The translations under genes were made by a program, and so were the position numbers. Source: Sphaerodactylus townsendi (taxonomy: Eukaryota). Taken from it: 64,000 bases of DNA. The notes under the pieces are model-generated. The model worked only from the letters and a program-made list of their open reading frames with translations. It was not told where the DNA came from and made no database searches. Below are positions 3,621 to 53,531 of this stretch, one piece after another (positions within the stretch are counted from its first letter, which is position 1; each line of letters starts with the position of its first letter). The stretch covers positions 29,264,001 to 29,328,000 of the forward strand of contig NC_059433.1 of the NCBI RefSeq assembly GCF_021028975.2, in the 5' to 3' direction.

Positions 3621-6600
3621 CTGGGCAGTGGTTCAGGATAAGTGACATCCAAAGCGGCACCCTTAATATGTCCAGTTTGAAGAGCTTCCACAAGTGCATC
3701 TTGATCTACAACTGATCCTGAACAGAAGTCACCAAATAAAAAGGCATTTAATACAAATTAGGGTACCTATAGTGTAATATCCAGCTCTGTGACAGTATGG
3801 ATGCTGCTTAAGGCATATAATGTATAAACTTCTCAAGTAATTATATCCTTTGATGCCTGGAGTGCTTTTCTTCCACCAACACCAGAGGCTGATATATTGA
3901 ACAAAAATTGTCACATCTTTGCAGGGCTGGATCTGGGGGAGGGCAAAGGGGGCAACGCAGAGAGAGGGTGGTGGTAGGAGAAGGAGGAGGCTCAGTTGTC
4001 TGGAAAATATTGTTTGTTCTGCAGTGTGTGTGCTCCTTTCCCCCAGACTGCTGCTAGGAAGTGGGGGAGATGTAGTTGCCCAGCAGAGATAGCTCATTCT
4101 GCAGTGCACGCCTCATCCCCTAATTAGGCTGCGGGTTGGAGGTCGAGGAAGCTAAATTGCCCAGCAGAGATACTTCATTTCATGATTAGGCTGCTGCTAG
4201 GAGGTGCGGGAGGCTCAACTGCACAAGAAAGGGATGGCCCATTCTGCAACACACATGCCCCATCCCTGATTAGGCTGCTGCTACCGTAGGAGGTGAGGGG
4301 AGATGTTCAAAGTTGTAGTTTAATGCAGTTACTTTCCTTGACCTTGCTAATCTTGTTCCTTTGCCTGGCCAAGGCCACCTCCACTTCTCCATCTGCTGGA
4401 CCTTCCAGTTCCTTATCTTCCCACCCCATCTCCTTTCAAGGACTGTGCATTGACAGTGGCTATGGTAAGCTTTGGTCATGCAAGACCTCTGGTGCAGGGT
4501 TGGGGGAGTAGTTGAAAATGCATTCTAAAACTAACAGGGGAGAAGAGTTTTGGGGCTGATGCCTGTTAATGGTTTAGATTAGAATGCCTGTTGAGCCCCT
4601 CTTTCCTACCCTCTTACATTGTGCTGGGCTGAGTTGCTGCAAGACCTGAATCAGGCTGGAATCGAATGGGGCAGAGGAGAAGAGGATGGGCTCTTGTCCC
4701 TCCCCATACTTTAAAACTGGAAGTTGGCTTATGCTTGGCTTTCCCAAAGGCCATGAGTAGACCTGCGCCCTCATCTGATAGGTTTGGCCTTTCCCAAAGA
4801 TGCTACTTTTACACCTTGAGAAAGGAGGGGCAGGACACGAAGGGCGGACCTGTTTTCATCTGTTATGTGCCATCAAGTTGTTCCTGACTTATGAATCAAC
4901 AGCCTTGCTTATCAAGTCATGCAAACTAAGACTGTGGCTTCCTTTATTGAGTCAATCAATCTCATAGTCTGTTCCCCTGTTTTCCTGCTGTCTTCAACAT
5001 TTCCTGGCCTTATTGTTTTTCCAACGAGTTGATTCCAGTGTCTAAAATACAGCAGCTTCAGTTTAGTCATTTTAGCTTCTCGCAGCAGAATTACCAGATA
5101 ACATTTTTCCTTCGGCTGTACTGTATCAGGCTGTGAAGGAACGTGAGGTGGTTTGGTGTTTCCCATGTCAAAATTATGTGTCTTGTATTTTTAAAATGTC
5201 TGGGAAAAGGCTAGTTTCTCCTCGGGTTGTGTTTTTATGTGTGCAGAGAAGTTGACGGAACATGCAAACATTATAGGTAGATAAAATAGTGTAAAAAGTT
5301 TAATTATTCATTAACATTTCATAGAATTCAACATAATTTATCCTGTCATTAAAAGAGTTGTTTATTATGTACATACTAGCAGGGCCCAGCCACGCGTTGC
5401 TGTGGCTTATTATGGTGAAATGGGAAAGGAACAGTGGCAGCAAATCAATTGCAGAGGCCAGCAGTACATGCTCATGCAAACACGCAGCCTGATACTGTGC
5501 GATGTCAGTGATGTGTGTGCCTGGATTCCTTGGGGGGGGGGGGCACACATCTAGGCTGGCTGGTCATGATCCGTTACCTGGGAGTAAGTTTGGTTGGTGG
5601 CAATGGGTGTCGCTTCTGAGGAAACCCTCTGAGGGGCGCGACGCAGCCATTCAAAGTATGTCACGGTTGTTGTACCGAGCTTACTCCTGAGTAATGCATG
5701 CCTGGTTTTCTTAACTGTAACCGCAACATTCCGGGAATCTAGGGTGCCTGGCTCCTCCCTCCCGTCCCTTGCATGTCGCCCCTCCCTCACTTCTCTTCCT
5801 TTGCATGCCACCCCTCCCCCTCCCTCCCTTCCCTTTCCCTCCGCTAGGGTGGGTGGGTCATATCAAGATGCTGGGCCCCCTGCCTCCCCTCCCTTGCATG
5901 CCACCCCTCACTCTCTCACTTCTCTTCCCTTGCATGCCACCCCTCCCTCTCCCTCGTGGTATGTGTGTGTACGTGTTTCACTTCCACTCGAGTTACTGCC
6001 TATGTACTGTTTCCACTGCTCATATCTGGCCATCTGAGTGAACATTCTAAGCTGCACATACATTCTAAGGGTGATAGTTACACACAGGCAGCTGCATGTC
6101 CTTCACCATGGAGCACCAGGAAAAAGGTGTTTTACCTGGGCCAGGTGTGAAATTTCAGGTATGTGAACATCTAAAAACACTCTCACCTGGCTGACTATAG
6201 TGGCTGGGAATTTTCAGAGGAATTGGGCCAGCAGTTAGTGAGTTATACTACCATTAACAAAAATACTGCCAGCTTTTTATATATATAGATATATAAAGAA
6301 GAAATATGTGTGTAACAGATGGGGGGTTACATTTAGTACTTTTGCTTTACTTTTGCTTAAAAATATAGATCCTATCCTGCTTCTTAGATTATTTATTTAC
6401 GGTATTTATTTAAGTATTAATCCCCTGCCTTATACTAGCATCTCTAGACAGCTCACATAAATCCATTATGTATTAGAACAGTGGTTCTCAACCTGGGGGT
6501 CGCAACCCCTTTGGGGGTCCAACAACCCTTTCACAGGGGTCGCCTAAGACTCTCTGCAGCAGTGTTCTCCATCTGTAAAATGGATAGATAGGGTTGGGAG

Positions 6601-9600
6601 ACACCACTACATGAGGAACTGTATTAAAGGGTCGCAGCATTAGGAAGGTTGAGAACCACTGTATTAGAATAACCCTGAGGTGATCCACAACAAATGAACA
6701 AGGTTTGCCAGACTTCATTATCATAAGCAACATGTACCAGGATATTAAGCTCCCTTGAACACAGGCATGGTTACAAATAGCCTTATGCTGCGTTATTATT
6801 TCACAGGAAGAATTTTCTTGTCCACCATGGTAGTGTAAGTTCTCTGTCAGCTCCTCCATTCCATTCCATCCCTAACCCATCTAAACTGGGCTTGTATTTT
6901 TATCAGTTCATCATATTGCCAAACTTTTGGATTTCTCAACACACAAACTTGCTTTGAGTAAACAGTTCTTTGTTAATCAGGCATTGCAAATAGCATCTGG
7001 TCTAAAACCGTCTATTAGTAGATGTTGCCTCTATATCTGTTCTCAGTGAAACTCTGGAAGTAACATTTAGTCTGTAAAAGATAAATAATCCTGATAATTC
7101 ATCTGGTCTCTAATATAGTTTATTTATTGCTATCTTTTGCAATAAGAGTTCAGTTTTCAATCCATATAATAAGATAAATGTTCATATGAATGTTACTAAT
7201 TTTCAACTTATATTGCATTGATCAGCTTGTATAAAGCCTGGGAAGCAATCTATGGTTCAAGTGCATTTTTAAGTGGCTATTTTATGACCTACCTCTAGAG
7301 ATATTTATGAGGGTAGCTGTAGGTTTCATCAGTTCGAGCTGCTTTTTCCCAATCAGTTTGTATGTCTGAGGTGTTAAACTGACAGCAAGCATCACAAAAT
7401 CAGACTGCTGGAGCAAATCTTCCATCTTCCGACAATAGCAGGCGCTCACAGCCAGTTCTTCATCTTCTTTCCTGACAGAAAATAATCATTGTGCAATTTT
7501 TGACAAGTACTTACTTATAGGAAAATTAAATTTTTGTTACAACTAGTAGCCCCATTTTGTAGATTACAGTCTGACCCTGGCAACTGAGATATCTAAGGAT
7601 CTATTTAAACAACAGGATACTCTTTGGCAAGTGTCCTCCTTCTATTAATTAATTGATTAAATAAATAAATAAATACATACATACATACATACATTTTTAA
7701 ACCGCCCACCCCCGAAGGGCTCTGGGCGGTGTACACCAGGCCAAACAATATTACACACAGTGGCCGAAAACAACATTACACATCATAAAATAACTTAAAT
7801 TTAAGCTAAAAACAGTTTACAGAATTCATAAAACCTAGCAGCATCAGAACAGTAGAATAGTGATTTGTAGGTTGCTGGTTGATTGATTGATTGACTGATT
7901 GACTGATGATTAACTAGGTCATCTTTTAATAATATCCACTCTGGAAAATCCAAGAGAAAGACATGTGGTGCAAGTCTAGCAATTTTTCCTCAGAGGTGAA
8001 TCTTACTCCCTGGTAAGTGTTTTAAAGGCCCTTTCCGCACGGGCCAAAAACGACGGCCTGGGGGCGGTAAAAACGCCGCCCCCAGGCCGCCGTTCGCACA
8101 GGCGGTGCTGCTGCAACGCAGCAGCGCCGACCTGACTGCGCTCCCCCTCCCCCAGGGCGGCGTCAGGCCGCCCTAAACAACAACCCTTTAAAGGGTTGTT
8201 GTTGAGGGGAAAGCGTCTTCCCGGCGGCGCGGTGCGAACCGCACCGCCGGGAACACGCTGTTTCCCCTTCCCTTTCCCATTTACCTCTCGTGTCGCCGTC
8301 CTGCTGGCCTCCTAAGTCCCTCCCTCACTGTCCTCCGACCCCTGGAGGTCGGAGGGCAGCGTGGGTGGGGCTGAGGAGGCCCGCAGGACGGAGTCACGAG
8401 CGGTAAATGGGAAAAAGAGGGGGGAAGGGGGGAAGAACGACCTCCGCCTCCACGCCGGCAGAATTCTTGCCGGCGTGGAGGCGCCTCGATGGCCGTGCGG
8501 AAACGGCCAAAGAGAGCAGCCTTAAGCTCCTTCCACCTTTGGCCCTAGTGTCTTCTCAGCCCGGCCCTTGTTACCAAAAAGAGGAAAAATAGAGCAGATA
8601 TTTTAATATTCACATTAATTTTTATAATAATCTTAATTAGATGGTGTGTTCTTTAGGAAAACACATATTTAAATTATTAGATACAATAGATGAGAATAGT
8701 ATTTCAGTTTACATTCTGACTCTGATGTTTCCTAGTTTAATTTGGCAAAGAATTTAACTGAATTACACAAGAAAGGTACAACTCTTAAGAAACTAAATAC
8801 TTTAAGTATTGGGCCTGTCAAATAACATGATATAATTTCTATGGGGAAAGTAGCAGAAAATATAAAGAGGCTTAAAGTAGGACACACATTGGCTCATCCG
8901 AAGAACGGGGTCTGGATTCTCTGTAGAGAACCAACTTCAAGTAAAAAGAAGGTGACTTTTTTATCCATCTGTGTCTTTAGTCTGAGAAAGAGTAAGGAGT
9001 TAGATCTGGTGCTAAATGTCATCCAACTAGATAAGTTTATTGATTTTACCTTTTTTTGGTTTTGTTTTAATGACTAAGATAGCTGTTAAAATTTCAGTCT
9101 CCCCTCACAAAACTATCCCTTTATCCACCCTCTTCAGTTTAGCAAGTACCACTTAACCCACTTCCTCCTTCCTTGGGTGATCAGAGTCCTTGTGTGCTGC
9201 TATTCTCTCCAAAGATTCAAACACTACATCTGAATCAATGTGAGCTAATCCTGGCCAATAGCTTGTATCTTGAATCTGTAGATATCTCGACAGTCACAGC
9301 TGTAAGTTCCCCACTGCCTTTTGTGTACTGGTCCATGGAAGAGAAACAGCATGACACCAGGATTTCCAGTATGTTCTGCTAGATGTTACCGAAAAGAAGA
9401 CTATATACATTTATAATGTGTTTTGTAACACATCAACATCTGTCACTTGTTTTTGTAACATTACTTCTGTCCTGCCATAAATATTGTTTAGGATACTACA
9501 GGGAAGATTAAATTAATCTCAACAAAACTTAAGTTGGGGGTTTGCTTTTTAACTCAAAAGGGAGAGGAGTCTAAAAACTGAGGCACCTCCTGGTCCAACT

Positions 9601-12600
9601 CTTCTGGCTGGAAAGTTGGCATGAACTCATCATATAATGAAGAGGATGTGGAGAAATATTGGAATGGCTACTTGCTCAGCTGTAACGTGCATTCACTTTT
9701 CCAAAGATTCCTGCTCAAGGACAGTGACATGATTGTGTACAAAGGTCCTAGATATCTTTTGGCATCCATTCCTCAAAACACTGGTTAGCTAACATCTACC
9801 CCAAGTACAATCATTTACTCTCCCTTCAGTATATTTGGCAGAAAGAGTAGTTCACCTTCTAAAACAGGTTCATGCCTGAAAATCAATTCACCAAGTTGCA
9901 CATACGGATCTTTTGCAAATGAAATGGGCACGAGGGGATTAAAAAAAAAACTTTACGAGGTGCTCATGTGATCTGCTTTATATGGGTCAAGACATGCATA
10001 TTTACCTTCTGTTCCTGTTGTGATAAAGGATTTTCATTTCAAAAGCTCTGGCCCTTTGAGCAATTTTGTAGCCAATGCTGCCCATTCCGACAATACCCAG
10101 AGTAGCCCCAGTGACTTCGTCTCCTAACATGTTCAAAGGGAAGTACTCAGTTTCTGGGGAAGTAGCCACCCGGCAACCTAAATAATAAAGAAATAAACAG
10201 TGTGCGAACATAGTGATGGTGGTGGGAGTTATAGAAAGGCAAGGTTTTAACAAAGGGGATTTCTATTTATTTTTGTGTCTCCTATTCGTGTTAGAGAAAC
10301 CCCTTCATATTTGAAAACTGGCTCCACAGGAAGTGGGAAGGGGCTATGAGGATTAGGAAACGCTAATATATTCAAGAGAAACAAGAAAGCATGCCCAAAA
10401 GGTGTTCACCTTCTGAACAAGCACTCACCTGACATTTGGACAATGGCTTTGTGTCAGGGGTGAACCCTATCTTTGTCCTGATTAATGGAAAACAGTACTG
10501 TTATTGTTTGAGTGGGAAAAAGTGTTGAGCAAAAGAGGACACTTATGTAAGTTGAATTCAGATTTTGAGAAGAAAGAAATATCTTTGGATATCTTTTTTC
10601 TCTCTCTGGGCCCCACCAGACACCAAACTGGTAAGCATTAATTTTGTACGATTTTCATCTTCGCCAGCTTGTCCTTCTGTTTTGTTTTCTAGGATAAGAT
10701 AGAGGTTGTCAAGAACTTGTTGGGAAGAGAGCTCCTGTCAAGGAGAAGATGGTGTAACCACCTTGACTACCGTACATAAAGGTATTGCAGTGGGCTTCCC
10801 TAGCAGACAAATGAATGTCTGATCTCTTAAAACAAACATTGATGCTCTTGATGTCTGGATGCCTTTTCTCTGCCTCTGGAATGTGACACCACTCCGAATG
10901 TGATGTTTGGACTTCTGACACTGATAGGAGATGGTGGGTGTGATGGAGAATATAGTCTGGAAGAAGTCTGGGAGGGTGTCAGGCTTTGAACAGTTTCTTG
11001 GAGGCTGGGAAGCAAACTGTCAGACAGTTGGTGCAGGAATATTTTGGGAGATGCATTGCAGTCTACTTCTAACTGTGTAAACTGACGCTTGTGTTTCAAA
11101 GACTCGCTCAAAGGAAAGCAACAGCCCAATCCAGAGCCCCTGATGATAGGGACAGTGCAGCTGCAATGCCACCCCACCTCTTCCAGAAAGCTATCTGGTG
11201 GTGCAGGTAGAGAGACAAAGCCAAAAAAAAGTTGCCCTCTATATGGTTCAATGGACTTGCGCCACCCAAAAGGCCCACCCCCCCAACGCCGATGTCCAAT
11301 TGGGACGCCTGTGCAACTCTGTGTGGGACGCCTGTGCAACTCTGCAATGGCTCAGACTTCTGGCTTTTGCCGCCGCAGAGCTGAGAGGTGGCTGGCCATT
11401 GGTGCCTTTGCCCCCTCTGTGGGTGCCCCTTGCACCAGTGGAGGGGGCAAATGTGTTGGCACAACCCCACACTGCCTCCTCTAAAGGATTCCCCCTCACC
11501 TTGGATTGGGCCATTAAGGTGCTTCCATATCAAAGTTTTGCTCCGTCTTGGCGTCCTTACTGCAGAGCTGTTTTTAGAAACATCCACATTATACCAACCT
11601 GAAAGTCTAAGCACCCTTATCGGGGCAAATTTCACTGAGTACTGTGGACCTTGATCTACAGTGGTGCTACTAGGTTTTTTAAAACTCGGGTTCCTTTTAA
11701 GCGTTTCAACTTTTTTGCCACATGGACATCTTTGGCTTAGAACCATTAAATAACAGGTTTTGGAATTGGTGTTTTATCACTATTTTTAGGATTAAGGTTT
11801 TAGTTATCACTGTTGTCAAAATAATGCTTTGCAAATGAAAGCAATAAATATAAGTTTATACGGGACCTAAGTTTTATGTGGAACCTACTACAGTTCTTCA
11901 GAGTCTGTAAGACAGAGCTATTCTATCAGACTTATGGTTGAGGACTACAATTGTGTCCATCTAGGAGGCCTCTTGTTACCCCTTCCACCCCTTTTCCTCC
12001 CTTTTGATGTAGTTTGGTGTAGTATCCCTCAACCAATCCCTTTGGTTATTGGTGCATTATCCCTCAAGTTTTAGACAGGTGCTGAGTTATGAGTCAGTAG
12101 TGTGGTGCGACAGCCAGAAATGCCAATGCAATTCTGGGCTGCATCAACAGGAGTATAGTGCCTAGACTGACGGACGTAACAGTACCACTCTATTCTACAC
12201 TGGTCAGATCTCACCTGGAATACTGTGACCGGTTGTGGGCACCACAATTCAAGAAGGATACTAACAACCTGTACCAGCTTGTCAATATCCTTCTTGAACT
12301 GGATTTGGTACATGTCCAGAGGAGAGCGACCAAAATGGTTAAAGGTCTGGATTTCATGTCTTATGAGTAGTTTGGGTACTAGGTATGTTTAGTCAGGAAA
12401 AGAAAAGGTTAAGGAATGACATGATAGCCATGTTTAAATATTTGAAGGGATATCATGCTGAAGGAGCAAGCTTGTTTTCTGCTGCTCCAGAGACTAGGAC
12501 AAGGAGTACTGGATTCAAGGTACAGGAAAAGAGATGTCCACCTAAACATTAGGAAGAACTTCCTGGAGGTAAGGGCTGTTTGACAGTGGATTATGCTGCC

Positions 12601-13259
12601 TTGGAGTGTGGTGGAGTCTCCTTCATTGTAGGTTTTTAAACAGAGGCTGGATGGCCATCTGTTGGGAGTCCTTTGATTGTGTATTCCTTCATGGCAGGGG
12701 ATGGGACTTGATGGCCCCCATGGTCCCTTCCAACTCTGTGATTCTATGCTAGGTATATTATTGGTTTTATGGGATTTTTATTGAGCTGGTGCAGGCTGTA
12801 AGCTGCCCTGAGTCCTTCTGATAAAACTGATAAACTAAACAATATGAGAAAACAGGCACAGCATAATGAATGCTTACCCTCAACGAGCCCTCTAGCAGCT
12901 GCCAGCAACAGGGCTATTCCAGTGTCTGCAGTGCTGCTGGAGACAGCGTTGGGACAATTAGCCGTCCTGACTCCAAAGTCTGCAATCAGCTTCAGGTCCA
13001 AGTGGTCCACTCCTGCACCTGAACTGGCAACCACTTTTAAGTTAGGGAGGCTCTTCAGAAGCTCTCGATCCATGACTGGTCTGTGCCACCATACATAAAC
13101 AGCTTTGACTTTTACACTAAGACAGGCTTTGTTTTCAAGAAACTCCTTCATGGTAACAAGGTGAAAGTGTTTCTTCAGAAGTGGCACATGTGATTCTAAG
13201 ATGCCAAATATTCCTCCCACTTCATTTACTAGCAGCACAGGCTGCTCTGGTCCTTCCAT
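3621..13259 (-). CDS. D-2-hydroxyacid dehydrogenase, GhrB/GRHPR-like (glyoxylate/hydroxypyruvate or '2-ketogluconate' reductase-like), paralogue B; 3'-partial
   Basis: Exons complement(12878..13262, ATG at 13259; 10006..10177; 7293..7471; 3621..3717), all GT-AG with compatible phases. Motifs: SSGAGVDHL, Rossmann GIVGMGSIG, YHNRNRR, INISRG (catalytic Arg), ALDVTYPEPLP (catalytic Glu). The terminal TPHIG exon was not found in the window. Confidence 0.9.
4860..5085 (-). mobile_element. RTE/BovB-like LINE 3' fragment
   Basis: Translation KMTKLKLLYFRH...GKTIRPGNVEDSRKTGEQTMRLIDSIKEAT resembles the C-terminus of RTE-clade ORFs. Confidence 0.7.
5376..6289 (-). mobile_element. Non-autonomous Helitron
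   Basis: The minus strand starts A|TCTATATATAAAAAG (6289) and ends GCAACGCGTGGCTGGGCCCTG-CTAG|T (5376). These are TC...CTAG termini inserted between A and T, with no TSD. Confidence 0.75.
6479..6661. mobile_element. hAT MITE, SPIN/URR1-like
   Basis: TIRs CAGTGGTTCTCAACC...GGTTGAGAACCACTG; perfect 8-bp TSD TATTAGAA (6471-6478, 6662-6669). Confidence 0.9.
8027..8508. mobile_element. GC/CpG-rich PIF/Harbinger-like MITE
   Basis: TIRs GGCCCTTTCCGCACGG...CCGTGCGGAAACGGCC, 3-bp flanks AAA/AAA, several internal palindromes. Confidence 0.75.
12075..12748 (+). mobile_element. CR1 LINE 3' fragment
   Basis: VPLYSTLVRSHLEYC...WAPQFKKD...VQRRATKMVKGL, plus the CR1 3' end GGTCCCTTCCAACTCTGTGATTCTATG. Confidence 0.9.
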
Positions 13260-13307
13260 GATCTGTAACAAGGATGAAAGGCAACTCTTCTGCTAAACAG
13301 TCTAAAG

Positions 13308-13505
13308 CAGTGGTTCTCAACCTTCCTAATGCCGCAACCCTTTAATACAGTTCCTCATGTTGAGTTGACCCCCAACCATAAAATTATTTGTGTCTCGGTT
13401 GCTAAGACCATTGGAAATATGTGCTTTCCGATGGTCTTAGGCGACCCCTGTGAAAGGGTTGTTCAACCCCCAAAGGGGTCGCGACCCACAGGTTGAGAAC
13501 TGCTG
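13308..13505. mobile_element. hAT MITE, SPIN/URR1-like
   Basis: CAGTGGTTCTCAACCTTCCTAATGCCGCAACCCTTTAATACAGTTCCTCATG...GGTTGAGAACTGCTG; perfect 8-bp TSD GTCTAAAG (13300-13307, 13506-13513). Confidence 0.9.
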
Positions 13506-13717
13506 GTCTAAAGCATTAAATGACTCCTTGATAAATATGGTTTTCCTTCATTGTGACCAGCAAACCCACCCCCTGCCCCTAATGTATGTGTTAAGTGCCA
13601 TCAAGTCACAGCTGACTTACGGTGCCCCCAGCAAGTGGCTTTCAAGACAAATAAGAAGCAGAGGTGGTTTGCCACTGCCTTCCTCTGCAATCTTCCTTTG
13701 TGATCTCCCTTCCAAAT

Positions 13718-14020
13718 AGAAGAAGAAGAAGAGTTTGGATTTATATCCCCCCTTTCTCTCCTGCAGGAGACTCAAAGGGGCGTACAATCTCCTTGCCCTT
13801 CCCCCCTCACAACAAACACCCTGTGAGGTAGGTGGGGCTGAGAGAGCTCCGAGAAGCTGTGACTAGCCCAAGGTCACCCAGCTGGCGTGTGTGGGAGTGT
13901 ACAGGCTAATCTGAATTCCCCAGATAAGCCTCCACAGCTCAGGCGGCAAAGCTGGGAATCAAACCCGGTTCCTCCAGATTAGATACACGAGCTCTTAACC
14001 TCCTATGCCACTGCTGCTCC
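13718..14020 (-). mobile_element. tRNA-derived SINE (Squam3-like), near full length
   Basis: The minus strand has Pol III A/B-box-like sequence (GTGGCATAGGAGG...GGTTTGATTCCC) and a (CTT)n tail. Sibling copies occur elsewhere in the window. Confidence 0.75.
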
Positions 14021-16660
14021 TGCTTGAGACTGGGCTATACTAGGCTGCCTCCCCCACCCCAAAGCTATATAAAACTACATAGCTACACTTAATTCCTCTC
14101 ATGACATCTTCCATTCCCCATGCAGTCCCTGCTATCCTCAGCTTAGCTTTTTGAATGGTCTACTCTAGAGGGTCCCCTCACCTGATTTCAGCAGTGAAAA
14201 AGCTGGCTGCATCCAACTGGAACACCTCTTCTCCAAAGCATCCTTTTGAAATACACTGTGTTCCTAAGATTTATGAAGAGCCCTTTGCAGCTGATGTCTG
14301 CTATCCTTCCTGCTCATCATCTAGAAAGCAAAGTGGCAATTTCAAGAGAAACGGTTGAACATTAACTTCAGAATACCAAATGGGTAGCTGATCTATTGAA
14401 CACAATGATCCCTCAAAAGGAAATTGTAAGGTCAGGGGCTGAACTTTGAATGCTGGAATTTATCAAGTTACTTTTTAAACCTTTTTGCTTGCCAAGAATG
14501 GAATCAAAATATAATTATGCTGAAGTTCAATTTAGTTCAGCAGGACAGCATTATTCTGTTGAGACCAGTCAGACTATAAAGTGATCAACTTAACCTGGAT
14601 GGCACTGGTACCTGTTTGTTTTATGGAAAATACCAGCATCCTTATGTTTTTGCTAAAGCACGTTCCTGTGGGAAATGAAAATAACTGCATTGTGCATGTC
14701 TACTTCGTATTAATGTCAGTTTTCCCTTAATAAAATCATGTAGATGCCTACTATATAAATAAAAGGTTTTCAAAAGTAACCTGATTTCTTCATAGCCTTT
14801 ACTCACAAGCTGCAGTGCTAATGCTGCAGTTCTGTGAATAAAGTGATAAACTACTGGCGACACAGATGGAAAAATCCACTTACAATCGCAACTGTGGTAA
14901 AGTGGGTCAGAATTAGCCTATAGTCATACGGACCTTCATTAAGAGTTTAATACAAAAATAATAATCACCTCTTTGAGCTTCAGTGATAAAATTATCGAAC
15001 ACAAGATAACACGTAGTTGGAAAAGCCTGCATACAAACCACGAAATTTCCATGTAGGGTTATAATATACTAAGGAAGAAAACAAAACATGTGTCAATTAG
15101 TGTCCACAGTTTTTCAACAGGGAAATTAATTCCCTACAATGTGTTATTTGTATTGGAGATCTGACAGAGCTGCTGTAGCAAGGGGGGACTGCGCCCGGGG
15201 CACATGTGTGCCCTGCGCCCCCGCCACACCTCCGCCCCCCACCGTGCACAGGCGTGCACCCGAGGCAAGACACTCCCCCGTCCCCTGGGCGCTACGTGAC
15301 GTCACTGTGGATCTGGTCCCTCACAATTAAAGCAATATTGACAGTAAAAAAACCTATCCAAAAGTGAATGATTCGCAGAAATAGATCATTACAAAGTGCA
15401 CCAGCAATGATTCCGTGATCAGAAGTGCTAGCTTTTATGTATTGGTTTTGCAGAACTGCCTCAGGGAGGCAAGATCACGAGTGCGGGTTTGGCTTACTTC
15501 CTGAGAGAAAACTTTCTTAATAGTCAGTCCTGTTTGGGCTCAATGTTTATTATGTACACATATTATTGTATTTAATTACCGGTAACAGCGTTGTGCTGGA
15601 ACGCTGCACTCATCTGTATTACTACGGCATCCATATTTTGTACTAAAGTCCTGATGACTATAGTTTAATTCTGATGAGCTTTATCACATTTGCAAATGTA
15701 ATGGAACTTCTGTAAATAAGCATTTTGGTTGGTAATTTTAAAAGACTTGCTGTCCCTTTCCCCCCTCCCCTCCTTGCTAATTTTAAATCATTATGTCACA
15801 GATGGTTCAGCTTTTAGCTTGATATGAGAAATCTGACAGGATAGTCAGTTGGTAGTGGTCAGCAACCTATTTATATTCAAAACTCAGAAACTGTGTTCTT
15901 AGTTAGGAAACTCAAATAGCTTTGGAAGGCTGCAAGCCCGCCGCTCAGTTCTGTGTTCCCGCTTGATGTAACTAGCACCATCAGAAGGCACCATTGGCAG
16001 GCAACATGCACAGTGCTTCAGAAATTGATTTCAAATCTAAAATGTATAACATGATGTAACATTTCTGTATTCTTCAGAAGAATCAAGTGATATCTGTTAA
16101 GTAAAGCAGGATAGTATTCAGTTACGGCTTAATATCCAGTGACAGCTTTTTATCTGTTTGAATATGAATATTATAAAGTTTCGCTTCAAAGCTATATAGT
16201 ATTTTTAGTGCAACTTAGGCAAGGAATTATATTCTCAACTACTGTATGTTCCTTGTCCTACAAATAGGATGCACACATATCGATTTTGCAGAGGTCAAGT
16301 GCTGGACTTGTTTTACACAGAATTTTTAAACGAGGGATCGACTCAGGAGTTTGGGCTAAGCACCTTGCATGTAACATTTCATAGATTTAAACCAACATAT
16401 AAGCTTGAAGGCAGCTTTGCGCCAGTCTGGCATGATCTTCAACATCAGTCTTTCATGCTCACATCCACACGTACAAAAGCCACCTTCTCTCTGTATCCAT
16501 ACTGGTCTTGGGACTGATAAATATTGGATGTTCTCCAATGAGGCTTACTGCGGTATCTTTAAATACCTTTTATGTGTGTGCGAGTTGTCAAGTAAGGTTG
16601 TTGAGGCAAACGACGTTGGAAGGTAGTTTGCCATTGCTTGCCTCCTTGTAGGCTGGGAGT

Positions 16661-16943
16661 GAGAAGAAGAGTTGGGTTTATATCCCCCCCCTTTCTCTCC
16701 TGCAAGGAGACTCAAGGCAGCTTACAAACTCCTTTCCCTTCCTTTTCCCCACAACAGACACCTTGTGAGGTAGGTGGGCTGACAGTTCTGAATGAACTGG
16801 GACTAGCCCAAGATTACCCAGCAGAAATGTAGGAGTGTGGAAACAAATTTCACCAGATAGTTGCTCATGTGGAGAACTGCGGAATCAAACCTGATTCTCC
16901 AGATTAGCATCCGCCTGCTCTTAACCACACCAAGGTGGCTCTC
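16661..16943 (-). mobile_element. tRNA-derived SINE, same family as 13718-14020
   Basis: Shares AGAAGAGTTGGGTTTATATCCCCCC...CACCTTGTGAGGTAGGTGGGCTGA...GACTAGCCCAAG with the 13.7 kb copy. Confidence 0.75.
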
Positions 16944-17189
16944 ATTAAGACTCTAAACAGCGTGGAATTGGCATACTTCAAAGACTACCACTTCCTATAC
17001 AATCCAGGCCACCAGTGAAGTTCCTTTTCAGAGTCCCTGCTCTTTCTGCCCCTGCTTGCAGAGAGGTGGTTGGTGGTGACTACAGGCAGGGATTTCCAGT
17101 GGTGGCCAGACCTTTGGAATGCTTTCCCCTTGAGACTCACCTGCCATGTACCTTACTGTCCTTTAGGCACCAAGCCAAATCATTTATTT

Positions 17190-17425
17190 AGAAGTGAGGA
17201 AGAGGAGTTTGTGTTTATACCCCACCTTTCTCTCCTGTAAGGAGACTCAAGGTGGCTTACAAGGTGTGGCTGAGAGAGTTGTGAAGAACTGTGACTAGCC
17301 CAAGGTCACCCAGCAGGAATGTAGGAGTGCGGAAACATATCTGGTTCACTAGATAAGCCTCTGCCACTCAGGTGGAGGAGTGGGGAATCAAGCCTGGTTC
17401 TCCAGGTTAACTACTACACCACACT
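17190..17425 (-). mobile_element. tRNA-derived SINE, same family, internally deleted
   Basis: GAGGAGTTTGTGTTTATACCCCACC...GAACTGTGACTAGCCCAAGGTCACCCAGC...GGGGAATCAA. Confidence 0.7.
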
Positions 17426-18027
17426 GAACTTATACCCTGCCTCCTCCGCAGTGGGGACCCAAAGTAGTTTATATCGCTCTCCTCTCATGTGTTCCTCATA
17501 ACAAGTATGTGAAGTAGGTTAGGCTGGGAATGTGACTGGCTAAGTTTACTCAGCAAGCTTCCATGGCCTAGCAGGGCTTTAAATCAGAGTCTCCCATATC
17601 CTTGCGTGACACACTAACTGCTATACTATACTGATTTCTGTCTGGCCTGAGGCATGTTGTATGAACATCATTTTAGCCTCTTCAGTGTTTGTGCTGCTTT
17701 TATGCCCTGGCTTGTTTATTGTTGATAACTGTTTTGAGCTTTTTAAAAACAATTTTATTGTATTGTTTTTATTTTGTGAGCTGTCTCAGAGAGATCTCTG
17801 ACAAATTACATAAATTTTTGAAAAACAAGCAAACAGCAGACAGGATTGGGAAGCCAGCCATTGTGCTCAAAGACTTGGTTATAAAATTTTAATAACGTAA
17901 GCACAGGAAATAGTCACAGTATGGGAGCACTTATGAGAAGCCATAATGGCAATGACTTGTTATTGCCTTTTAAATGATTACTTATAGCTTAATGTCCTTT
18001 TGCGAATTGTTATATTTTCTGTCAAAA

Positions 18028-21000
18028 TCAATTGGGATACACTTCGCTTGGAATGGGACGATCATTCAGAACAGCCAGAATGTTTTCTACTGCTTCTTCT
18101 GTCATCATACGTAGAGCTTGCACTGTAGCAGTTCCAATATGAGGAGTTATAATAACATTCTTCAATTGTAGTAGCTGATGGTCTCTACAAAGAAGGCGAG
18201 AGAAAATAATCAGAGATGACCCGGTGTGAGCTACACAGGTCAATTAGTACGGAACCCAATCTTATGAATGCACTGGAAAAGACTCCATGCTTTTAAAAAG
18301 TGAGGTTAGCTTTCACTGCATTATCTTCACTGTTATACTACCACATGGTATTAGGAACTGTATCACTCCAGTCTTTTTCCATCTAGACTAGCTCCCAATT
18401 TACTTCTGAGCCTAATTTCTAAATGCTGGTATTGACTTTTAAAGCCATAGGTGGCTTGGTACCAGCAATCTGAATGACTGCCTACTTCCATAGGGGCCTA
18501 CCTGTCTACTCCAGTCATCTTCTGAGGACCTGCTTTGGGTACCTCCCCTACTGGAGACTAGATGGGTGGCAACCTGAGAAAGGGCCTTCTTGGCTGTGGC
18601 ACCAAAACTTTGAAACTCCCTCCTCAGGATGATTTGTCTGTCTCCCTCTATCATGGTCTTTCACCTGCAGGTGAAGTTTTGTTTTGTTTGTTTTTGGCCT
18701 CCCTGTTTGTGTTATGTTTGTTTGTGTTTATATGCTTTATTGAACTGTTCAATTATTTTACGTATACGTTAATTTTATGCTATTTTATGTTAACTTTTAT
18801 GTATACTTTATTTTTATGCTGTTTTAATGGGGAAATGTTTCCATGTTCACAGCCTCGGAGACCCTATTTGGGTGGAAAGACAATATAGAAATTTGGGTGC
18901 TGTGTGGTTTCCGGGCTGTATGGCCGTGTTCTAGCAGCATTCTCTCGTGACGTTTCGCCTGCATCTGTGGCTGGCATCTTCAGAGGATCTGATGTTGGAA
19001 AAGCAAGTGGAGTATATATATCTGTTGGAGTGTCCAGGGTGGGTGGAGAAACATTGTCTGTGAGTAACAAAGAAGGCAACCAGGTCAATAGTTGAGGGCA
19101 TCTGAATAGAAGTATGAGTAACAATGAAGACTATAGCATGGGAGTAACACAGGAGATAGCAAGGTCACTGGTGGGAGCATCTGAATAGAAGTATCCTGGC
19201 CTTTGTTTCTTTTGTCTATGGTCATCCTGTGTTTGTGTGGAGCTGGTTAGACACTGTCTTGACTCTAGTATTTTTCAACACTGGCAGCCAAGTTCTGTTC
19301 ATTTTCATAGTTCCTTCCTTTCTGTTAAAATTGTCCATGTGCTCCCATGCTTTTTTCCCCTTTAATCAGAGTATGGCCAATGAAATACATGCTATTTAAT
19401 GTCTGACATCATTCATTCAGGATAAAAGAACGATCAAAAGCTTGTTGTAGTTCACCTTGGCAATGGTTCAGGGTCTGTGACATCCAAAGCTGCAGCCTTA
19501 ATGATCCCATTTTGCAGTGCTTCTGCCAAAGCATCTTGATCAACTACTGCACCTAATACGGAGGAAACGATAACATCAAGAATCAAGATAAAACAAGCCT
19601 TATAGAGGCTGGCTATCCATTACAAGACTCCCCGGCATATTTATATCGAAGTGCATGCCAGTGTCCTATGGCTTTTACTCACAAACAAATGTGCTCAGGG
19701 TTGCAAGAGTGGGAAGGGGGGAGGGATATGACACCATCTAACGCTATATGGTTCCTGGTTTTATTGAGTTTGTATACTGTGTTTTAAAGCTGTCTTTTAT
19801 ATTATGGTTGTTCACTGCCCTGAGCCCCTCAGGGGAGGGCAGTCTATACGCCCAATAAATGAATGAATGAACTGTACAACATAGCTAAGGGTCTTTTCAA
19901 AAGATCCTACATACATGACTAGTAACATGCAAAATGCATGTTGTTCCAAAAGTTCTGTGACAGCAATGCTTAACATATTTATCTCGCTGTAGTTCTATTC
20001 AGTTCCTTGAAGTTGTTACAGATTAAGTGAATAAGCTGTGGACTGGAGTCTAATTCTGCCGTTGCTCTGGCTCTCCTGTTTGCAACTAGATTAGGAAGTT
20101 ATGCAATCCACAGCTGGGCGAATTGCAGTGTCATCAACGCTTGTGGTGCTTTACTTTCTCCCTTTTGTGGAACTCGAGGAGGAGAACGAAGAGTTTCTAG
20201 AAAGCCTCCCTCCCAGGCTACAACCAGACCTGGACCTTTGTTCAAACTGACGCGTTTGAACAAAAATGCTACCCTGTGGATGAAGAATGAGATGAGGACA
20301 GCTCTCTGCAGAGCCTTTTTCCTATATCGTCGTTTCTGAGAGAAGCCAGGTTAATCCTTGACACTTTAGATCAGATTCCTGGCTACATCCCTGTTCCATT
20401 GAAGCTGATGCAATGAAGCACATTTTGTGCACGCACGCACAAAATAATGAGAAAGGATAGAGTACGTACAAAATTACAGCTCTCAGAAAAGCAAGTGCTT
20501 ATATGGAAGCCTGCACACACATCCTACCTCTGCAGATGTTGATGAGGATAGCCGTGGGCTTCATCAGCCCCAGCTCCTTTTTACCGATCAGCTTGTGCGT
20601 CTCCGATGTCAGGTTCACAACCAGCATCACAAAGTCCGACCGTTGGAGCAGCTCTTCTATGGTTTTACAATAAGTAGCACCAACTACCTGTTCTTCCTCT
20701 TTTCTGGAGGGAAGAAATGAGACAATAATCACATAAGTGTCCCTTGTTGTTCACCCATAGGATTAAGGGGATCACCCACTTGGCACCATCTGGTACGATT
20801 TTGTTATTGCATTTTAATTATGTTTGATATTTATTAATACGTGGCTGTATAGTTTTATGATTGCTAGCCACCCTGAGTCGGAAAGTGTGGGTTAGAGAAA
20901 TCAAATCAGTAAATACATACAGACAAATGACTCAGTGCTCAAGCTGTTTGGGAAGCACAAATACTCGCCACGGAGATGTGACCTCCTTGCCAATTTTTTA

Positions 21001-23545
21001 CAGCAAGTGTTTATTTTGGGCCTGAAGGCAACATTCCAAGCCACACATATCTCTGAAGCCACACCACAGATACTTGTATATCTTTCTGAAGATGGTAGGC
21101 TTCACTGAAGGATGCTGGCTGACAGTGAGCATATAAGGATTTAGCATATAGGAGTCAACACTGATTTCTGTCCAGCAATGCTATTTTCTTTATGAAAACA
21201 GTAATGATGGAGCATATTTCCATGAAGTATATTTCCATGAAAATATAAGTGTCTGAGTGACCTACAACTCTTGTGTTGATTACCCATTCTGGGGATAAAT
21301 AGAACAATCCATTATTTTTGTTACGTGTTTCCCCCAGTTTATGCAGCATCCTCGCTAGAACCACAGTAAAAACAAAATAGTGGGGATTAAAAAAAAGACG
21401 AGAAAGTAATTTGATTCTGTTCTTTGCCTATTGGCTTCTTTGTTTGCATGCTACATTTGATATACCCTACACAGCAGTTAATGTAGGGAGTGTCTCATAA
21501 AACTCTGGTTCGCATTTTGATGGGGAGAGTAAACCAGTTGAAAAGGGTCATGTTGCAATGACTTTCTCATCTTATGAGCATATGAAAACAGGCCCCAAAG
21601 CACAGCTGCAGACTAATTTTGTTGTTCCTTTCACTTGCATACTGACACATAGCAATAATTTGCAGAGTTCTGTAGAGGTCAGGAAGCTTGTGGCAGATTG
21701 ACTAGTGCCCATTTACCTGCGGTTCCTGTTGTGATACAGAATGTTCATGTCAAAAGCTTTTGCTCTCTTGGCCACCTTATATCCAATGTTGCCCATCCCA
21801 ATGATACCAAGGGTGGCCCGGGTGACTTCTACTCCTAACCAGTCAACACAAAAATGTTTGGTCTGTGGAGACATTGCAATGTCACAGCCTAAAAAAATGC
21901 AACAAAAATCCAAACAGTGGGAAGTAAGAAATAAAGAACTGATCCTTGCAAACTGTTTATTCTAGACAGGAGAAATGAAATAAGGTATCTGCCCTCTTGA
22001 GACAACTCCTCTCAAACTCACCAGAGCTCTTTGTGAAGATATAATTCTGCTTATTTATTCACAGAAATAAGCTTATAACCCAGCGAGATGATAATTCAAT
22101 GGCACATGGTACATATATATGCCAGTATTTTCACAATGTACATCCAGTTAAAAGCTCTTAAATGGCATATTGAGAAAACATGTAGCAAGCATTTAGAGAG
22201 GTGGTACCATCCACAAATGAGAATCACAGAGCTAGATGGATCTGGGCAGCCCTATCCACAGGCCCTTTGGGAGCAGTCGCCTTACCGTGTTGCTCCCAAA
22301 GGGGCTTCCTGATGGTGCTGCCACTGAGAAGCTCCATTGCCCCACACCCGCCTTACGCTGCTGGCTAAGTTGGAACTCACAGGCACCAGCGTAATGTGAT
22401 GACTGGCTGGAAGGAAGCCCCTGGCCATGCCCTTGCTATGCTGGCGTCAGTGCCCCAGGGAGGGCATTTTGGGTGGTGGAAACCCATACCGCTTCCACCA
22501 GTGGTTTCAGCCCCCACTCTGTGAAGGGATGTCATGCTGAAGAGGGAGCAAGCCTGTTTTCTGCTGCTTCGAAGATTAGGACAAAAAGTAATGGATTCAA
22601 GATACAGGAAAGAGATTCCACCTAAATCTTAGGAAGAACTTTCTGACAGCAAGGGCTGTTTGACAGTGGAAGAATGAATCAAGTGAATTCACTGCCACAA
22701 TGAAAGCAGCATTCGCTACTTGGTTCATCCTTCCACTGCTGTGGCAAACTGCACTCCTCCAGATTCAGGAGCTGCCTTTCAGGGTCCTCTTGAAGAGCAG
22801 AGAGAAAGGAGCATCTTTTGACAGACTTAGGGGCCATAGCTGGAAAGGCCCAGCTCTTAGCCTCTAACCAACAATGCACATGGGAGGAGAACCCCATTGG
22901 CTGACTGAAAGTAGCAGGAGGACCACAAGGGGAGAGGTGGACTCATCATTTCCCAGAAAAGGAATTGTCTGTGCTGCATGATATTGATCATCTCAAACAC
23001 GTGCTAAACATTTCAAACACACAGGAGTGTTACTGGACTACCAAAGGACTAAAATGGCATGGAGATAGGTGGGCAACATGATGGATATAGATAACCAAGG
23101 CCAGACACATTGGCGGGGCTGGCCGTTTGTTTGAATAACTCCAACAAACTGCCAAAAACTTACCTTCCACAAGTCTCCTGGCAGAGGCCAGCATTAAGGC
23201 CATGCCTATATCTGCGGTGGAATCAGAAACAGCATGCGGAGTATTGGTTATTTTCACTCCAAAGCTAGAAATCAGTTTCAGATCCAAGTGATTCACACCT
23301 ACTCCTGAGTTTCCAATCACCCTGAGGTCTGGCAAGCTTTCAAGAAGCTCCCGGTCAACGAGGGGTCTGCCTTCAAATACAAAAACAGACTTGATCTTTT
23401 CACGCAGCTCTTCCTTGCTTTTTTGAAATTCCTTCATCGTGATGAGATTGAAGTGCATCTTGAGGAACTCCACATGGCTTTCCAGGACACCAAACGGCCC
23501 TCCTATTTCAGAGACCAAAATACCAGGCAACTCTTTTCTTTCCAT
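18028..23545 (-). CDS. D-2-hydroxyacid dehydrogenase, GhrB/GRHPR-like (probable glyoxylate/2-ketogluconate reductase), paralogue A; 327-aa core
   Basis: Exons complement(23164..23548, ATG at 23545; 21717..21888; 20528..20703; 19456..19552; 18028..18184) give 984 nt in frame, all GT-AG. Motifs: [59 protein letters not shown], so the Arg-Glu-His triad is complete. Confidence 0.93.
18894..19342 (-). mobile_element. Penelope-like element 3' fragment (pseudo-LTR)
   Basis: The minus strand at about 19245-19342 encodes [24 protein letters not shown], resembling the end of a PLE GIY-YIG ORF. It is followed by the CTGAAGATGCCAGCCACAGATGCAGGCGAAACGTC...AGAACACGGCCATACAGCCCGGAAACCACACAGCACCC terminus. 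Confidence 0.8.
18945..18987 (-). ncRNA. Minimal type I hammerhead ribozyme motif (Penelope-borne)
   Basis: UCCU-CUGAAGA-U-GCC(loop)GGC-GAAA-C-GUC-ACGA: conserved core, 3-bp stem II, palindromic ACGU in place of stem III, one stem I mismatch. Confidence 0.65.
22520..22670 (+). mobile_element. CR1 LINE fragment
   Basis: Similar to 12440-12590 (GAAGGGATGTCATGCTGAAG...TTCCACCTAAATCTTAGGAAGAACTTTCTGACAG). Confidence 0.8.
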
Positions 23546-24524
23546 GATCTGAAAACAGGGATGAGAAAGATTCAGATGGAAGCAGAACGTGTAAATGCAC
23601 GGTGTGCTTACTCCTTAGCCCTTGTTGCAAATCTGCAATTAGTGTCTCGTCTGCAAATGTATTTATACTGATGAAGGGGAATTCAAAAGATCTCTATACT
23701 ATCACAAGGTAATCTGACTACTCTCCATCTCTTGACCCTAAAACTATAATTGCAAAATTGTATTCATCGTGCATAATGTAAGAACTGCTTGGATCTAACA
23801 GTTAATGAGAACCTGCAGATTACCGCTGTATTGGCAGTTTCGATTCTGTGTGAGCTTCTTTTACAAATTTACATGCTGTTATTTTTCCAGAAGCACAGAT
23901 ATCAGCTCCTTTAGTCCATGATAGCCAATGTGGCATAGTGGTTAAGAATGCTGGACTAGTATCTGGAAGACCAAAGTTCAAATCCGCACTTGTGCCATGG
24001 AAGTTAACTTCGTAACCTTGGGCCATTACACTCCCAGCCTAATTTATTGTAAGAATAAAGTAGAGAAGAGAAGAATGATGTAAGCTGTTTTGGGGACATA
24101 TCAGAAAGAATTGAAATACAATTGAAATAAATCTTAAAATTCAATTTTAAAAATGAATTACATTTTAAAAATCAATTGAAGCCAAAAGGAGTGGGGGTGG
24201 GGGGAGTTTTCGATGGAGGCTACTTACTGGTGGAAAAAGTTGTAATAGGGCCAATCATGTAACAATAAAAAGGTATTACACTGAACAGGTTATACTTATA
24301 GCTTGTTCATTGAAGCTTGGCTCTAAATAATAACTTTTCACAACAGCAGAGTCACTTCACAGCAAACTGGATGTACACAATAATTTCTTCTTAGCACATC
24401 AAATTTGTTGATCTACGTGAACTACAGAACAACTGAAATAATAATTAGCAACAGAAAGGTTTATGCAAGACCGTTTCTTTTTCTTCCTAGTATTAACCTT
24501 GCCCTGCTTCTTTCTGATACTAAC

Positions 24525-24674
24525 CTTGCTGTTGTTGTTTCGGCTGGTCCTGTAGTTCAGCAGGGAAGTCCTGCTTTTCTTTGTCCTTTTAGACAAATAC
24601 TTGTCAGCCAGTTTCCCCCAGGAAGCAGCCAGGTGAACACACCTTGCCAAGCAGATTGCTTTTACTCGCAACAT
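24525..24674 (-). CDS. Candidate upstream coding exon of paralogue A: 50-aa basic, mitochondrial-presequence-like leader
   Basis: Acceptor CTCTTTCTGGTACAG|24721, ATG at 24674, donor AAG|GTTAGT at 24525 in phase 0, matching the phase-0 acceptor TTTTCAG|ATC ATG at 23548. The peptide has 13 R/K and 1 D. Confidence 0.6.
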
Positions 24675-26529
24675 GACCCAGGCGTTTCAGATGTCTATGC
24701 ACAATTTGGTAAGAATCACATCTGTACCAGAAAGAGCAATTTCAGTTGGAGGTCGTGTAAAAATTGAGCAGACAGTAAAAATCAAATAACAATAAAAAAG
24801 AGAATGCAACCAAAATAAAGGCAAAATCTGCACTTTATATTTGAAAAATCTTTCTTTAGAAGAGCGTCAGCAAAATAAATGCCAAAATGAATAAAAGATA
24901 CATAATGTTTGTTGCTTTAAATAAACAGAGGTCTTACACTTCGTAACTGGTCCTCCTGAAAGCTGCCTATCAGTTCCAGCAGGGCAGTGAATTGAACTAA
25001 GAGAAATCTGCCCATTGAACGTAGGCAGATGAAACACAAGGTATCAGTTTTCTTTATTAAAAAAATGCTCTGCAGGGCAAACTAAAAATAATAGGTGGAG
25101 TCATGTCCTATAATCACATTTCCAGTTTGACAGGTCCCTTAGCTGGCTTGACTCTGGCTAAATATAAATCCTCTCTTAACTAAGCATTTGGCACATCTTC
25201 TCCCAAGTGCAGCGTCAGTTCAGTTCAGTGCAACTGAAGATATTCATGATAGGATGATCAGTTAATCATTATGCATTCAGAAACTGCCTTTCCAACAAAA
25301 CAAGACTGGGTAAAAGTCAATCTAGATTATTTTGAACAGGTGGCATTTTTGCACCATTGCTGCACCATAAAGTGGTGGATGCATGATTTTTGTGATGGTC
25401 CCTACAGACTAAGGCACAATCTATGTGTTTTTTTCACTGTAAAAGTCATAAAAATTCATGAGGATTGATGCCTCGAATCTATGAAGCGCCGTCAAGTGTT
25501 AGATCCATTTTTAATTATCCTGTTTGATACTGGATTTGGTGGAGTTTTAATTATTCTGTTTGATACTGGACATGTTTGATACTGGATTTGGTGGAGTTCT
25601 GTTCAAAAAAGTAAAAGATCCACAAGGATCCAAATTTTACTTTTTTCTGATTAAATTATATATAGGAGGAGCGTAGCTAATCAGATCGGGGTAGGTGGAC
25701 TAGAGTGGTTAGTGGTGGATGTGGGGTTAGCATGTCCTCTCAGTCAGATACACTAACCACAAGCGAGCCAGGATCAACCTAATCTACCTCCCAGGGTTGC
25801 TGTCAAGACAAAATAGAATGATTTTGTAATCCCTACCTAGTCCCTCAGGTTTTTTTAAAAAAGATGAACAATATGTAAATATGACTAACAAGTGCCCACT
25901 GGTCCCTAAAGTGTTATAGAGGGAGACAAGATGTGTTTGCTGTGACTGCTTCTTCCCACAACAGATGTGTTTGTGAGCATCTTTTTTTTTTTGAAGCATT
26001 GTGGGGGCCTGTCGTTTTGGGCTGGTTTATGGGGCTCAGAATGGAAAAGACTGAGAGGTTTAAACAGATATCATCTTTTTTGTTAGGGCTGTGAAGTGCG
26101 GCTGCTGCTTCAGTTACCTGCCTGCCACAGCTTGGAGGATGGACAGAACTAACCAAAATCAATATTGGTGTCATAGAAGGGTTGTCAAAGACTTGAATTA
26201 ACAAAGACAATTTTATTGTATCCCTTTGCTTGAGCAGTGAACAAGCTCCCTTTCCGCCTCTTTCATTTTGAATGACTCCAAAACCTAGAATGAAATCTCT
26301 GTTATACATGCTAGGACCAACAAAATGGCACATAAATTGTTCCAACTTTCAAGTTCACAAAGGCTATTATCAAAAAAGGTTATCTCAAAAAAATTTTTTA
26401 GAAAAAGGATTTTTTCCCCAGATGTGATAGCAAGACCCTATAATAGTGACACAGCTGCCAATATCTTACCATAGGTATCATTATCATAGATATTGGCAGC
26501 TGTGTGTCATCCCTCCCGGGGGTGGAGGG

Positions 26530-27320
26530 GTTTTTAGCGCATGCGTGCTATTTCTTTGACATTTATTCCTTCACCGAGAATGCGAAGTTAGATATTCAAG
26601 GGCTTCCCGTTCCATACAGGCCAGGTTGTAGAGCGCGGAGGCAGAGATGATCGATATTGAAATCAGACGAGAGTAATCAACTACCGCCTGTAGTACGCTC
26701 TCTGGTTCCAGAGAGATTCCACTAAAAGACAGATTACTATAGCAGGAAGAAACGTCACGAATAAACCATTGAGAGGGGAACGACGACAAAATGTCTAGTG
26801 ACTAACTTTTTAAACGTCATGCATTTTGAGCACAGCTAAAAGCCCATCGAGGGCCAGACCACCACCCAACTCCCCCTTGGTTTTCCCTCGAATGAACCAG
26901 TCCCGATCGCAGGAAACAAGCGCGAGCTACCTTTCGCTTTTCTCTATGAATCTGGAACCTTCCGGAAATGTCATGTTCAACGCCCGCCAAACGAGCGTCA
27001 CTTCCTTCTATGACGTTACTACGCGCCACAACGGTGTGTTTTTAACTCGTCTCCTGCCGTCGTTTTATTTTTGCTTAAGTCGCCAGAGGCCATGTGGCCG
27101 GGATTCTGAGTACTGTTGTAAAGTATTTCGGTTTGCCTTCTGTAGATGGTTGAGACGTTATCGGAGAAGGAAGAGGAGGAGAAGAAAATTCTGGAAACTG
27201 TTTCTGGCTTGAACAGGTAAAATACAGCCAGGCTATGTCGAGGTAGGGGAGTAGCGGGAGGAAAATGTGGTCCCTTGTAAAAAGCAGATAGTCGGAGGCC
27301 GAGCGAGTAGGAAGGTCTGT
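26530..27320. promoter_or_regulatory. CpG-rich bidirectional promoter (dehydrogenase A on minus, TXNL4A on plus)
   Basis: Local CpG enrichment between divergent genes. Motifs: NRF1-like GCGCATGCG (~26537), ETS-like TTCCGGAAAT (~26960), E2F-like CCCGCCAA (~26983). A plus-strand donor CAG|GTAAAA at 27216/27217 fits a non-coding TXNL4A exon. Confidence 0.7.

Positions 27321-53246: not shown

Positions 53247-53531
<285 letters not shown>

Follow-up and report, generated by a model that had tools for sequence, protein, structure and literature searches.

Why should a gecko carry two similar D-2-hydroxyacid dehydrogenase genes in tandem beside TXNL4A, and in what do the two enzymes differ? The question is raised by a stretch of 64,000 nucleotides (nt) of Sphaerodactylus townsendi (contig NC_059433.1, positions 29,264,001 to 29,328,000; hereafter the window, in whose coordinates features are given), which a sequence-only reading had interpreted as holding a mitochondrial copy A and a cytosolic copy B of a separate vertebrate reductase. 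The account we consider probable is that A and B are two genes of an A-B-C array lying between TXNL4A and RBFA, that they belong to an old animal family of GHRB-type enzymes distinct from GRHPR, and that they are likely 2-oxoacid reductases dependent on NADPH (reduced nicotinamide adenine dinucleotide phosphate) and acting on different substrates. Within this account, the family, the fold, the array and the stem-sauropsid age are carried directly by the results below. The genes are already annotated in public databases, and the family is otherwise uncharacterised.

Copy A comprises six exons on the minus strand (24721-18028), with 378 codons and zero internal stops, and its protein is a 100% match to the RefSeq entry “probable 2-ketogluconate reductase isoform X1” of S. 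townsendi (P0001). A leader exon (24525..24721), which is an internal exon with an AG acceptor, an ATG at 24674, 50 codons and a phase-0 donor, and which has homologous basic leaders elsewhere, is followed by a 385-nt exon (23164..23548) with an internal Met in a strong start context and the substrate-binding domain (PF00389, 59.3 bits). The 172-nt exon (21717..21888) encodes the GxGxxG motif and a His-Asn-Arg cofactor loop from which the acidic residue is absent. The complete Arg/Glu/His triad is spread over the 176-nt exon (20528..20703; catalytic Arg, at the position of GRHPR R245), the 97-nt exon (19456..19552; catalytic Glu, E274 position) and the last coding exon (18028..18184; catalytic His), the last also encoding an altered pocket with Thr for Ser296 and Leu for Arg302; AATAAA-type signals start downstream at 17893. 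Copy B comprises four minus-strand exons (13262-3621) with 277 stop-free codons: a 385-nt exon with a phase-0 acceptor and a Met in strong context (12878..13262), exons of 172 nt (10006..10177) and 179 nt (7293..7471) placed by splice sites and a Pfam domain scan, and a 97-nt exon (3621..3717), the final copy B exon present in the window. All splice sites of both copies are GT-AG. The exon sizes given by the sequence-only reading (385/172/176/97 nt in A, 385/172/179/97 nt in B) and the absence of stops are confirmed on the window DNA. The Arg-Glu-His triad that it ascribed to the pair is shown in full for A only, because the His-bearing exon of B is not in the window.

The two proteins share 182 of 276 aligned residues (66%), with proportions of nonsynonymous and synonymous differences (pN and pS) of 0.20 and 0.74. 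The resulting ratio of nonsynonymous to synonymous rates (dN/dS), about 0.07, is not near 1 and is only indicative because synonymous sites are saturated. Three DNA sequencing runs cover the copy B exons at similar single-copy depth, so that copy B is not a collapse artefact; this depth and the paralogue tree described below agree with the earlier view of an old, retained duplication rather than an assembly artefact.

Three exons of each copy score above cutoff for PF00389 and PF02826, which, together with GHRB-type neighbours in both sequence and structure, supports the initial assignment to the D-2-hydroxyacid dehydrogenase family. The best NCBIfam models are glyoxylate reductase (271 bits against a cutoff of 455) and GhrB (242 against 492); both scores are below the equivalog cutoffs, and the name “probable 2-ketogluconate reductase” therefore does not imply a substrate. 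The probable source of that automatic name is the set of best matches, namely archaeal glyoxylate reductases (6bii, 2dbq, 5aov) and the Bacillus subtilis enzyme 9m0t, itself called “probable 2-ketogluconate reductase” (36-38% identity, template modeling [TM] scores 0.84-0.86), from which the gecko reductases differ in falling under the equivalog cutoffs. The AlphaFold model has a mean confidence (predicted local distance difference test, pLDDT) of 95.6, and its top Foldseek matches are all GHRB enzymes (TM 0.82-0.86). Copy A scores 232 bits against an archaeal enzyme, 222 against the Bacillus enzyme and 184 against human GRHPR, whereas a jellyfish GRHPR-type protein reaches 352 bits against human GRHPR. 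The four human members of the wider dehydrogenase family are, we assume, GRHPR, PHGDH and two CtBPs; CtBP, PHGDH and GhrA all score far below GHRB enzymes in the sequence and NCBIfam comparisons.

Human GRHPR (PDB 2gcg) resembles the gecko enzymes in fold (TM 0.83), Arg/Glu/His triad, Val-Gly substrate loop, aromatic lid and NADPH-type loop, and its Ser296, Arg302 and Met305 are kept by copy C and the mammalian members. It differs in its 34% identity and its separate clade; moreover, Arg302 is missing from A and B, which also diverge from GRHPR at positions 296 and 297, and the leader exon of A is separable. The separation was examined in a tree of 29 rows in which GRHPR was represented by two invertebrate GRHPR-type rows (only P0260 being validated against 2gcg), with CtBP, PHGDH and GhrA left to the score comparisons. 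Here, amphioxus, tunicate, echinoderm and brachiopod proteins fall together with the vertebrate rows (95/95), and a clade with 99/99 support holds the reductase family and excludes both GRHPR-type rows; forcing the family and these rows together is 39 log units worse, with a marginal p value of 0.045 in the approximately unbiased (AU) test. The family is thus separate from GRHPR, as had been proposed, but it is not restricted to vertebrates, since amphioxus, tunicates, sea cucumber, sea urchin and brachiopod have members. The genes known as zgc:136493, bovine LOC515578, pig LOC100157017 and chicken LOC100858664 belong to the same family by clade and RBFA linkage, the chicken gene being placed by name and chromosome only. 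Copy number is one in placentals, with extra copies in marsupials and three in sauropsids.

The third sauropsid paralogue, C (P0546), lies by its annotation on the 96.9-Mb contig that carries A and B, and the order A-B-C-RBFA was read from one fused horned-lizard model. Fused models in manta and camel likewise join a reductase to RBFA, and therefore the linkage, as judged from fused models and neighbouring accession numbers, is probably as old as jawed vertebrates. The age of the array was addressed with a tree of 24 rows, of which a 100-row version gives the same picture. Clades A (100/98) and B (100/99) both bring together squamate, tuatara, turtle, crocodilian and bird proteins, and A and B are sisters (98/98). 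The sauropsid rows stand together (97/98) with mammals apart, and the five C rows come off at the base of this sauropsid group without resolution. Forcing C with mammals gives a p-AU of 0.038, and forcing A with mammals 0.0004. Because each of the three copies is found in lizards, tuatara, turtles, crocodilians and birds alike, the triplication is best dated to the stem sauropsids, and two duplications on that stem would be the simplest reading. The genes are thus kept in triplicate, and in birds too, rather than in duplicate in reptiles as the sequence-only reading had it.

The paralogues differ at fixed positions of the pocket. We counted residues in database proteins of 300-470 amino acids that are 66% or more identical to a reference, using GRHPR numbering via alignment to 2gcg. 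Arg245 is invariant, and Glu274 and His293 occur in nearly all full-length rows, the exceptions including truncated isoform models. Position 302 is Arg in 48/52 C and 82/92 mammalian proteins, Leu, Thr or Ile in 91/98 A proteins, and Thr in 44/72 B proteins. Position 296 is Ser in 46/52 C and 82/92 mammalian proteins, Thr in 95/98 A proteins and Ile in 45/72 B proteins, and 64 of the 72 B proteins have Lys or Arg at position 297; the beta3-alpha3 loop also varies by paralogue. The Gly-Ser and Arg-x-x-Met motifs, which are typical although not obligatory for GHRB enzymes, are found in C and mammals and not in A and B, and frog, tunicate and brachiopod rows have the C-type pocket. The cofactor betaB-alphaD loop reads His-Asn-Arg, with no Asp, in all groups. 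An Asp in this loop marks a preference for NADH (the non-phosphorylated cofactor), Gly-Ser is tied to hydroxypyruvate preference, and Arg-x-x-Met to keeping large substrates out (PMC6303947). In Rhodotorula D-mandelate dehydrogenase, replacement of Arg-x-x-Met goes with larger substrates (PMC6303947), which offers an analogy for A and B; plant hydroxyphenylpyruvate reductase is another GHRB member with an altered pocket. Both are distant in sequence and functional leads only.

These motifs suggest that the enzymes would reduce 2-oxoacids to D-2-hydroxyacids with NADPH. Copy C and the single mammalian gene would have kept an ancestral hydroxypyruvate-type pocket (Gly-Ser, Arg-x-x-Met, aromatic lid), while the ancestor of A and B would have lost the pocket Arg and so admitted larger substrates. 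In A, Thr296 and a beta3-alpha3 loop Glu may then have become fixed, and our best guess, a doubtful one, is that this copy acts on bulkier aromatic or branched 2-oxoacids. B may have fixed Lys or Arg at position 297, and a more anionic 2-oxoacid would be an equally uncertain best guess for its substrate. Several points weigh against this account. Rejection of a grouping with GRHPR is marginal in the AU test, which uses invertebrate GRHPR-type stand-ins; the residue counts pool isoforms and close species, with one B isoform (P0270) binned as A; and manta and teleost rows also lack the Arg at 302, so that this position is labile. In addition, gene conversion between the tandem copies could produce a spurious sauropsid clade, copy B may be incomplete in this species, the long and short isoforms of A (P0001, P0002) are database predictions, and GHRB function is warned to extrapolate poorly and its members to be promiscuous (PMC6303947).

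The competing explanation that survives best, although we regard it as unlikely, is that all copies are promiscuous glyoxylate/hydroxypyruvate reductases backing up GRHPR, with the extra copies providing dosage or tissue coverage and redundancy explaining the patchy losses in mammals. The GRHPR-type motifs of C and the mammalian proteins fit such a role, as do the nearest structures, which are glyoxylate/hydroxypyruvate reductases, and the liver expression of one chicken member (PMC6839265). However, A and B lack those motifs, and a GRHPR mutation in the cat leads to type II hyperoxaluria (PMC9202916) even though the felids examined here, namely cheetah, lynx and clouded leopard, keep the reductase. 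If it were true that the enzymes merely back up GRHPR, they would be of little interest.

A second alternative concerns this gecko lineage alone and is compatible with substrate-distinct paralogues in other reptiles: copy B may have lost its last exon here and be a young pseudogene, which we judge slightly less likely again. The exon carrying the catalytic His is absent from the window, where a profile of 17 B last exons matches only the exon of A, and the public copy B model of the same assembly (P0493) is 277 amino acids long and ends at the same point. Private changes also number 22 in copy B but 10 in Euleptes B (p=0.05), as opposed to 9 and 8 for copy A, and copy B carries Arg-to-Gly and Glu-to-Gln changes at columns kept in 70/72 and 72/72 B proteins, respectively. 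Nevertheless, the 833 nt of copy B are free of stops and frameshifts with intact splice sites, the contrast in rate between A and B is not significant (Fisher p=0.35), and the B proteins of other geckos depart from the consensus at 7-18 positions, which brackets the 13 found here. A full 328-amino-acid B is present in 5/5 other gecko species retrieved. Furthermore, an assembly gap of 288 N (1351..1638) lies 2 kb downstream of copy B, after a 138-nt G-rich run; the gap may hold the missing exon, and a hole in the assembly seems likelier than a true loss.

Two further observations were made in the first intron of copy B. The three DNA runs show many clustered differences from the assembly at 10928-11017, which suggests a local assembly error or a divergent haplotype. 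An open frame at 12071-12670 has a related piece in the matching intron of copy A (22522-22670); this frame and two others (~611-1030 and 55021-55337) are presumably fragments resembling the reverse transcriptase of a long interspersed nuclear element.

Less probable still is the division originally proposed, in which one activity is split by gene between a mitochondrial A and a cytosolic B. The copy A leader contains 13 Arg/Lys and 1 Asp/Glu in its 50 codons (medians of 10 basic and 2 acidic residues in 39 orthologous leaders), its hydrophobic moment of 0.56 is near that of an annotated RBFA leader, and homologues occur in lizards, snakes, turtles and birds; it is likely a mitochondrial targeting peptide. 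The observation that only copy A has a leader holds within the window, where a profile of the 39 leaders matches only ~24674-24525 and no second leader precedes copy B. It also agrees with 60 of the B-type proteins, including all retrieved lizard, crocodilian and bird B proteins, none of which has a turtle-type leader. The other 12 of 72, which all come from turtles, do carry a leader of the A kind. Moreover, an isoform of A that skips the leader exon is annotated (P0002), and the downstream internal Met of A has a stronger start context than the leader ATG and is kept in 59/59 extended A-type proteins, so that copy A alone would supply both compartments. The assignment of one compartment to each gene is thus not supported, and the existence of a third copy, C, and pockets that differ between A and B at conserved positions also speak against it. 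Because A and B have lost the pocket Arg and diverged, a split by substrate is likelier than a split by compartment.

Under a substrate split, compartment would be chosen per transcript rather than per gene: inclusion of the leader exon would yield mitochondrial A, and cytosolic A would arise when the exon is skipped or when scanning continues beyond its weaker ATG. The first bases of the leader exon form a start-stop upstream open reading frame (24721-24716, minus strand), 47 nt before the leader ATG, which could tune the long versus the short isoform. In turtles, the B and A leaders were compared in P0289 against P0078/P0279, in P0021 against P0094, and in P0277 and P0278. The B leader of Kemp's ridley equals the A leader over 66/66 residues, the leaders of Chelonoidis A and B differ at 3/25 residues, and turtle leaders sort partly by paralogue. 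One exon spliced to either gene and two converted copies would both fit these sequences. Splicing of the A leader onto B may also be possible in the gecko, since the donor of the leader and the acceptor of B share phase 0 and a second leader is absent.

The idea that the genes are simply orthologues of GRHPR, or a GRHPR duplicate of vertebrate age, which draws on the GRHPR label of many database entries, is largely refuted and highly improbable given the structural-alignment identity of only 34% to human GRHPR, the clustering of invertebrate members with the gecko genes apart from the GRHPR-type rows, and the far higher score of the jellyfish GRHPR-type protein than of copy A against human GRHPR.

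Beyond sauropsids and the invertebrates listed above, named members occur in manta ray, bichir (as zgc:136493), teleosts, frogs and marsupials, and Australian marsupials have extra copies of their own (P0376/P0399, P0386/P0426, P0393/P0434). Mammals were surveyed in the best 120 of 6458 matches to a cat-family query, supplemented with cluster look-ups. These list felids, hyaena, bats, pig, ruminants, hippo, horse, rhino, elephant, dugong, sloth, armadillo and aardvark, as well as tenrec, shrew, rabbit, pika, squirrel, kangaroo rats, gundi, treeshrew, colugo, lemurs, galago and tarsier; a camel member was found in a separate search. Most placentals, tarsier and lemurs included, have a single copy. 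An apparent absence from perissodactyls was rejected, horse and rhino members being found under one cluster representative. Nine of ten unnamed proteins resemble those of bats, lagomorphs or shrews; the tenth, P0369, is of placental type with no named neighbour above 77% identity and was left unplaced. No simian, muroid, caniform or cetacean names occur among the best 120 of 6458 matches, a list that reaches well below placental scores. Because the clusters of their nearest relatives are small or distant, and because the human D-2-hydroxyacid dehydrogenase family counts four members (PMC6303947), there is fair evidence for loss in simians and muroids, human and mouse included. The absence at the human locus stated in the sequence-only reading agrees with this, as no human-type member is among the listed matches. 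The evidence for absence from caniforms and cetaceans is weak, most multi-member clusters being unopened.

TXNL4A (DIM1; 28136..34356, plus strand; PF02966, 69.7 bits) stands head-to-head with copy A, with one coding exon at 28136-28309 and two of approximate position, from 31912 and from ~34185. In the interval between them, a CpG island (26400..27300; CpG observed/expected 0.77-1.02) likely serves as a shared bidirectional promoter of both genes. Farther along, an HSBP1-like exon (~39953-40138, minus strand) scores 16.9 bits, which is under the cutoff, and a PQ-loop exon resembling SLC66A2 lies at ~53319-53531 (plus strand); with these two exons the gene order fits the 18q23-type order given in the earlier reading. 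Imperfect long inverted repeats at 8171-8483, 33702-33864, 37095-37254 and 42814-43305 are probably miniature inverted-repeat transposable elements.

We found no functional or evolutionary study of this reductase family in the literature searched, subscription papers being mostly outside its scope. The supplements of PMC5577775 do not mention the family terms, and in those of PMC6303947 chicken and zebrafish appear as organisms only. One chicken member is expressed in liver, rises 1.71-fold in laying hens and is entered as having no mammalian homologues (PMC6839265, Table 1), a statement that the members in many mammals contradict at the level of the family; the pig protein has been seen in a bacon proteome (PMC11083045). 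It is conceivable, and we offer it tentatively, that these genes represent an overlooked animal reductase family, ranging from brachiopods to tarsiers, whose reaction is not that of GRHPR. The family would have been lost separately in simians and muroids and thereby hidden from human and mouse genetics, both species being without the reaction, while sauropsids would have three substrate-distinct enzymes and one mitochondrial leader exon spliced or copied to different paralogues. An enzyme present in cattle, pigs, horses, cats, bats, elephants and lemurs, and apparently not in humans or mice, would mean that 2-oxoacid metabolism differs between species, a point relevant to livestock and poultry and to choosing animal models. 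With their fixed pocket differences, the three sauropsid paralogues offer a direct test of enzyme specialisation.

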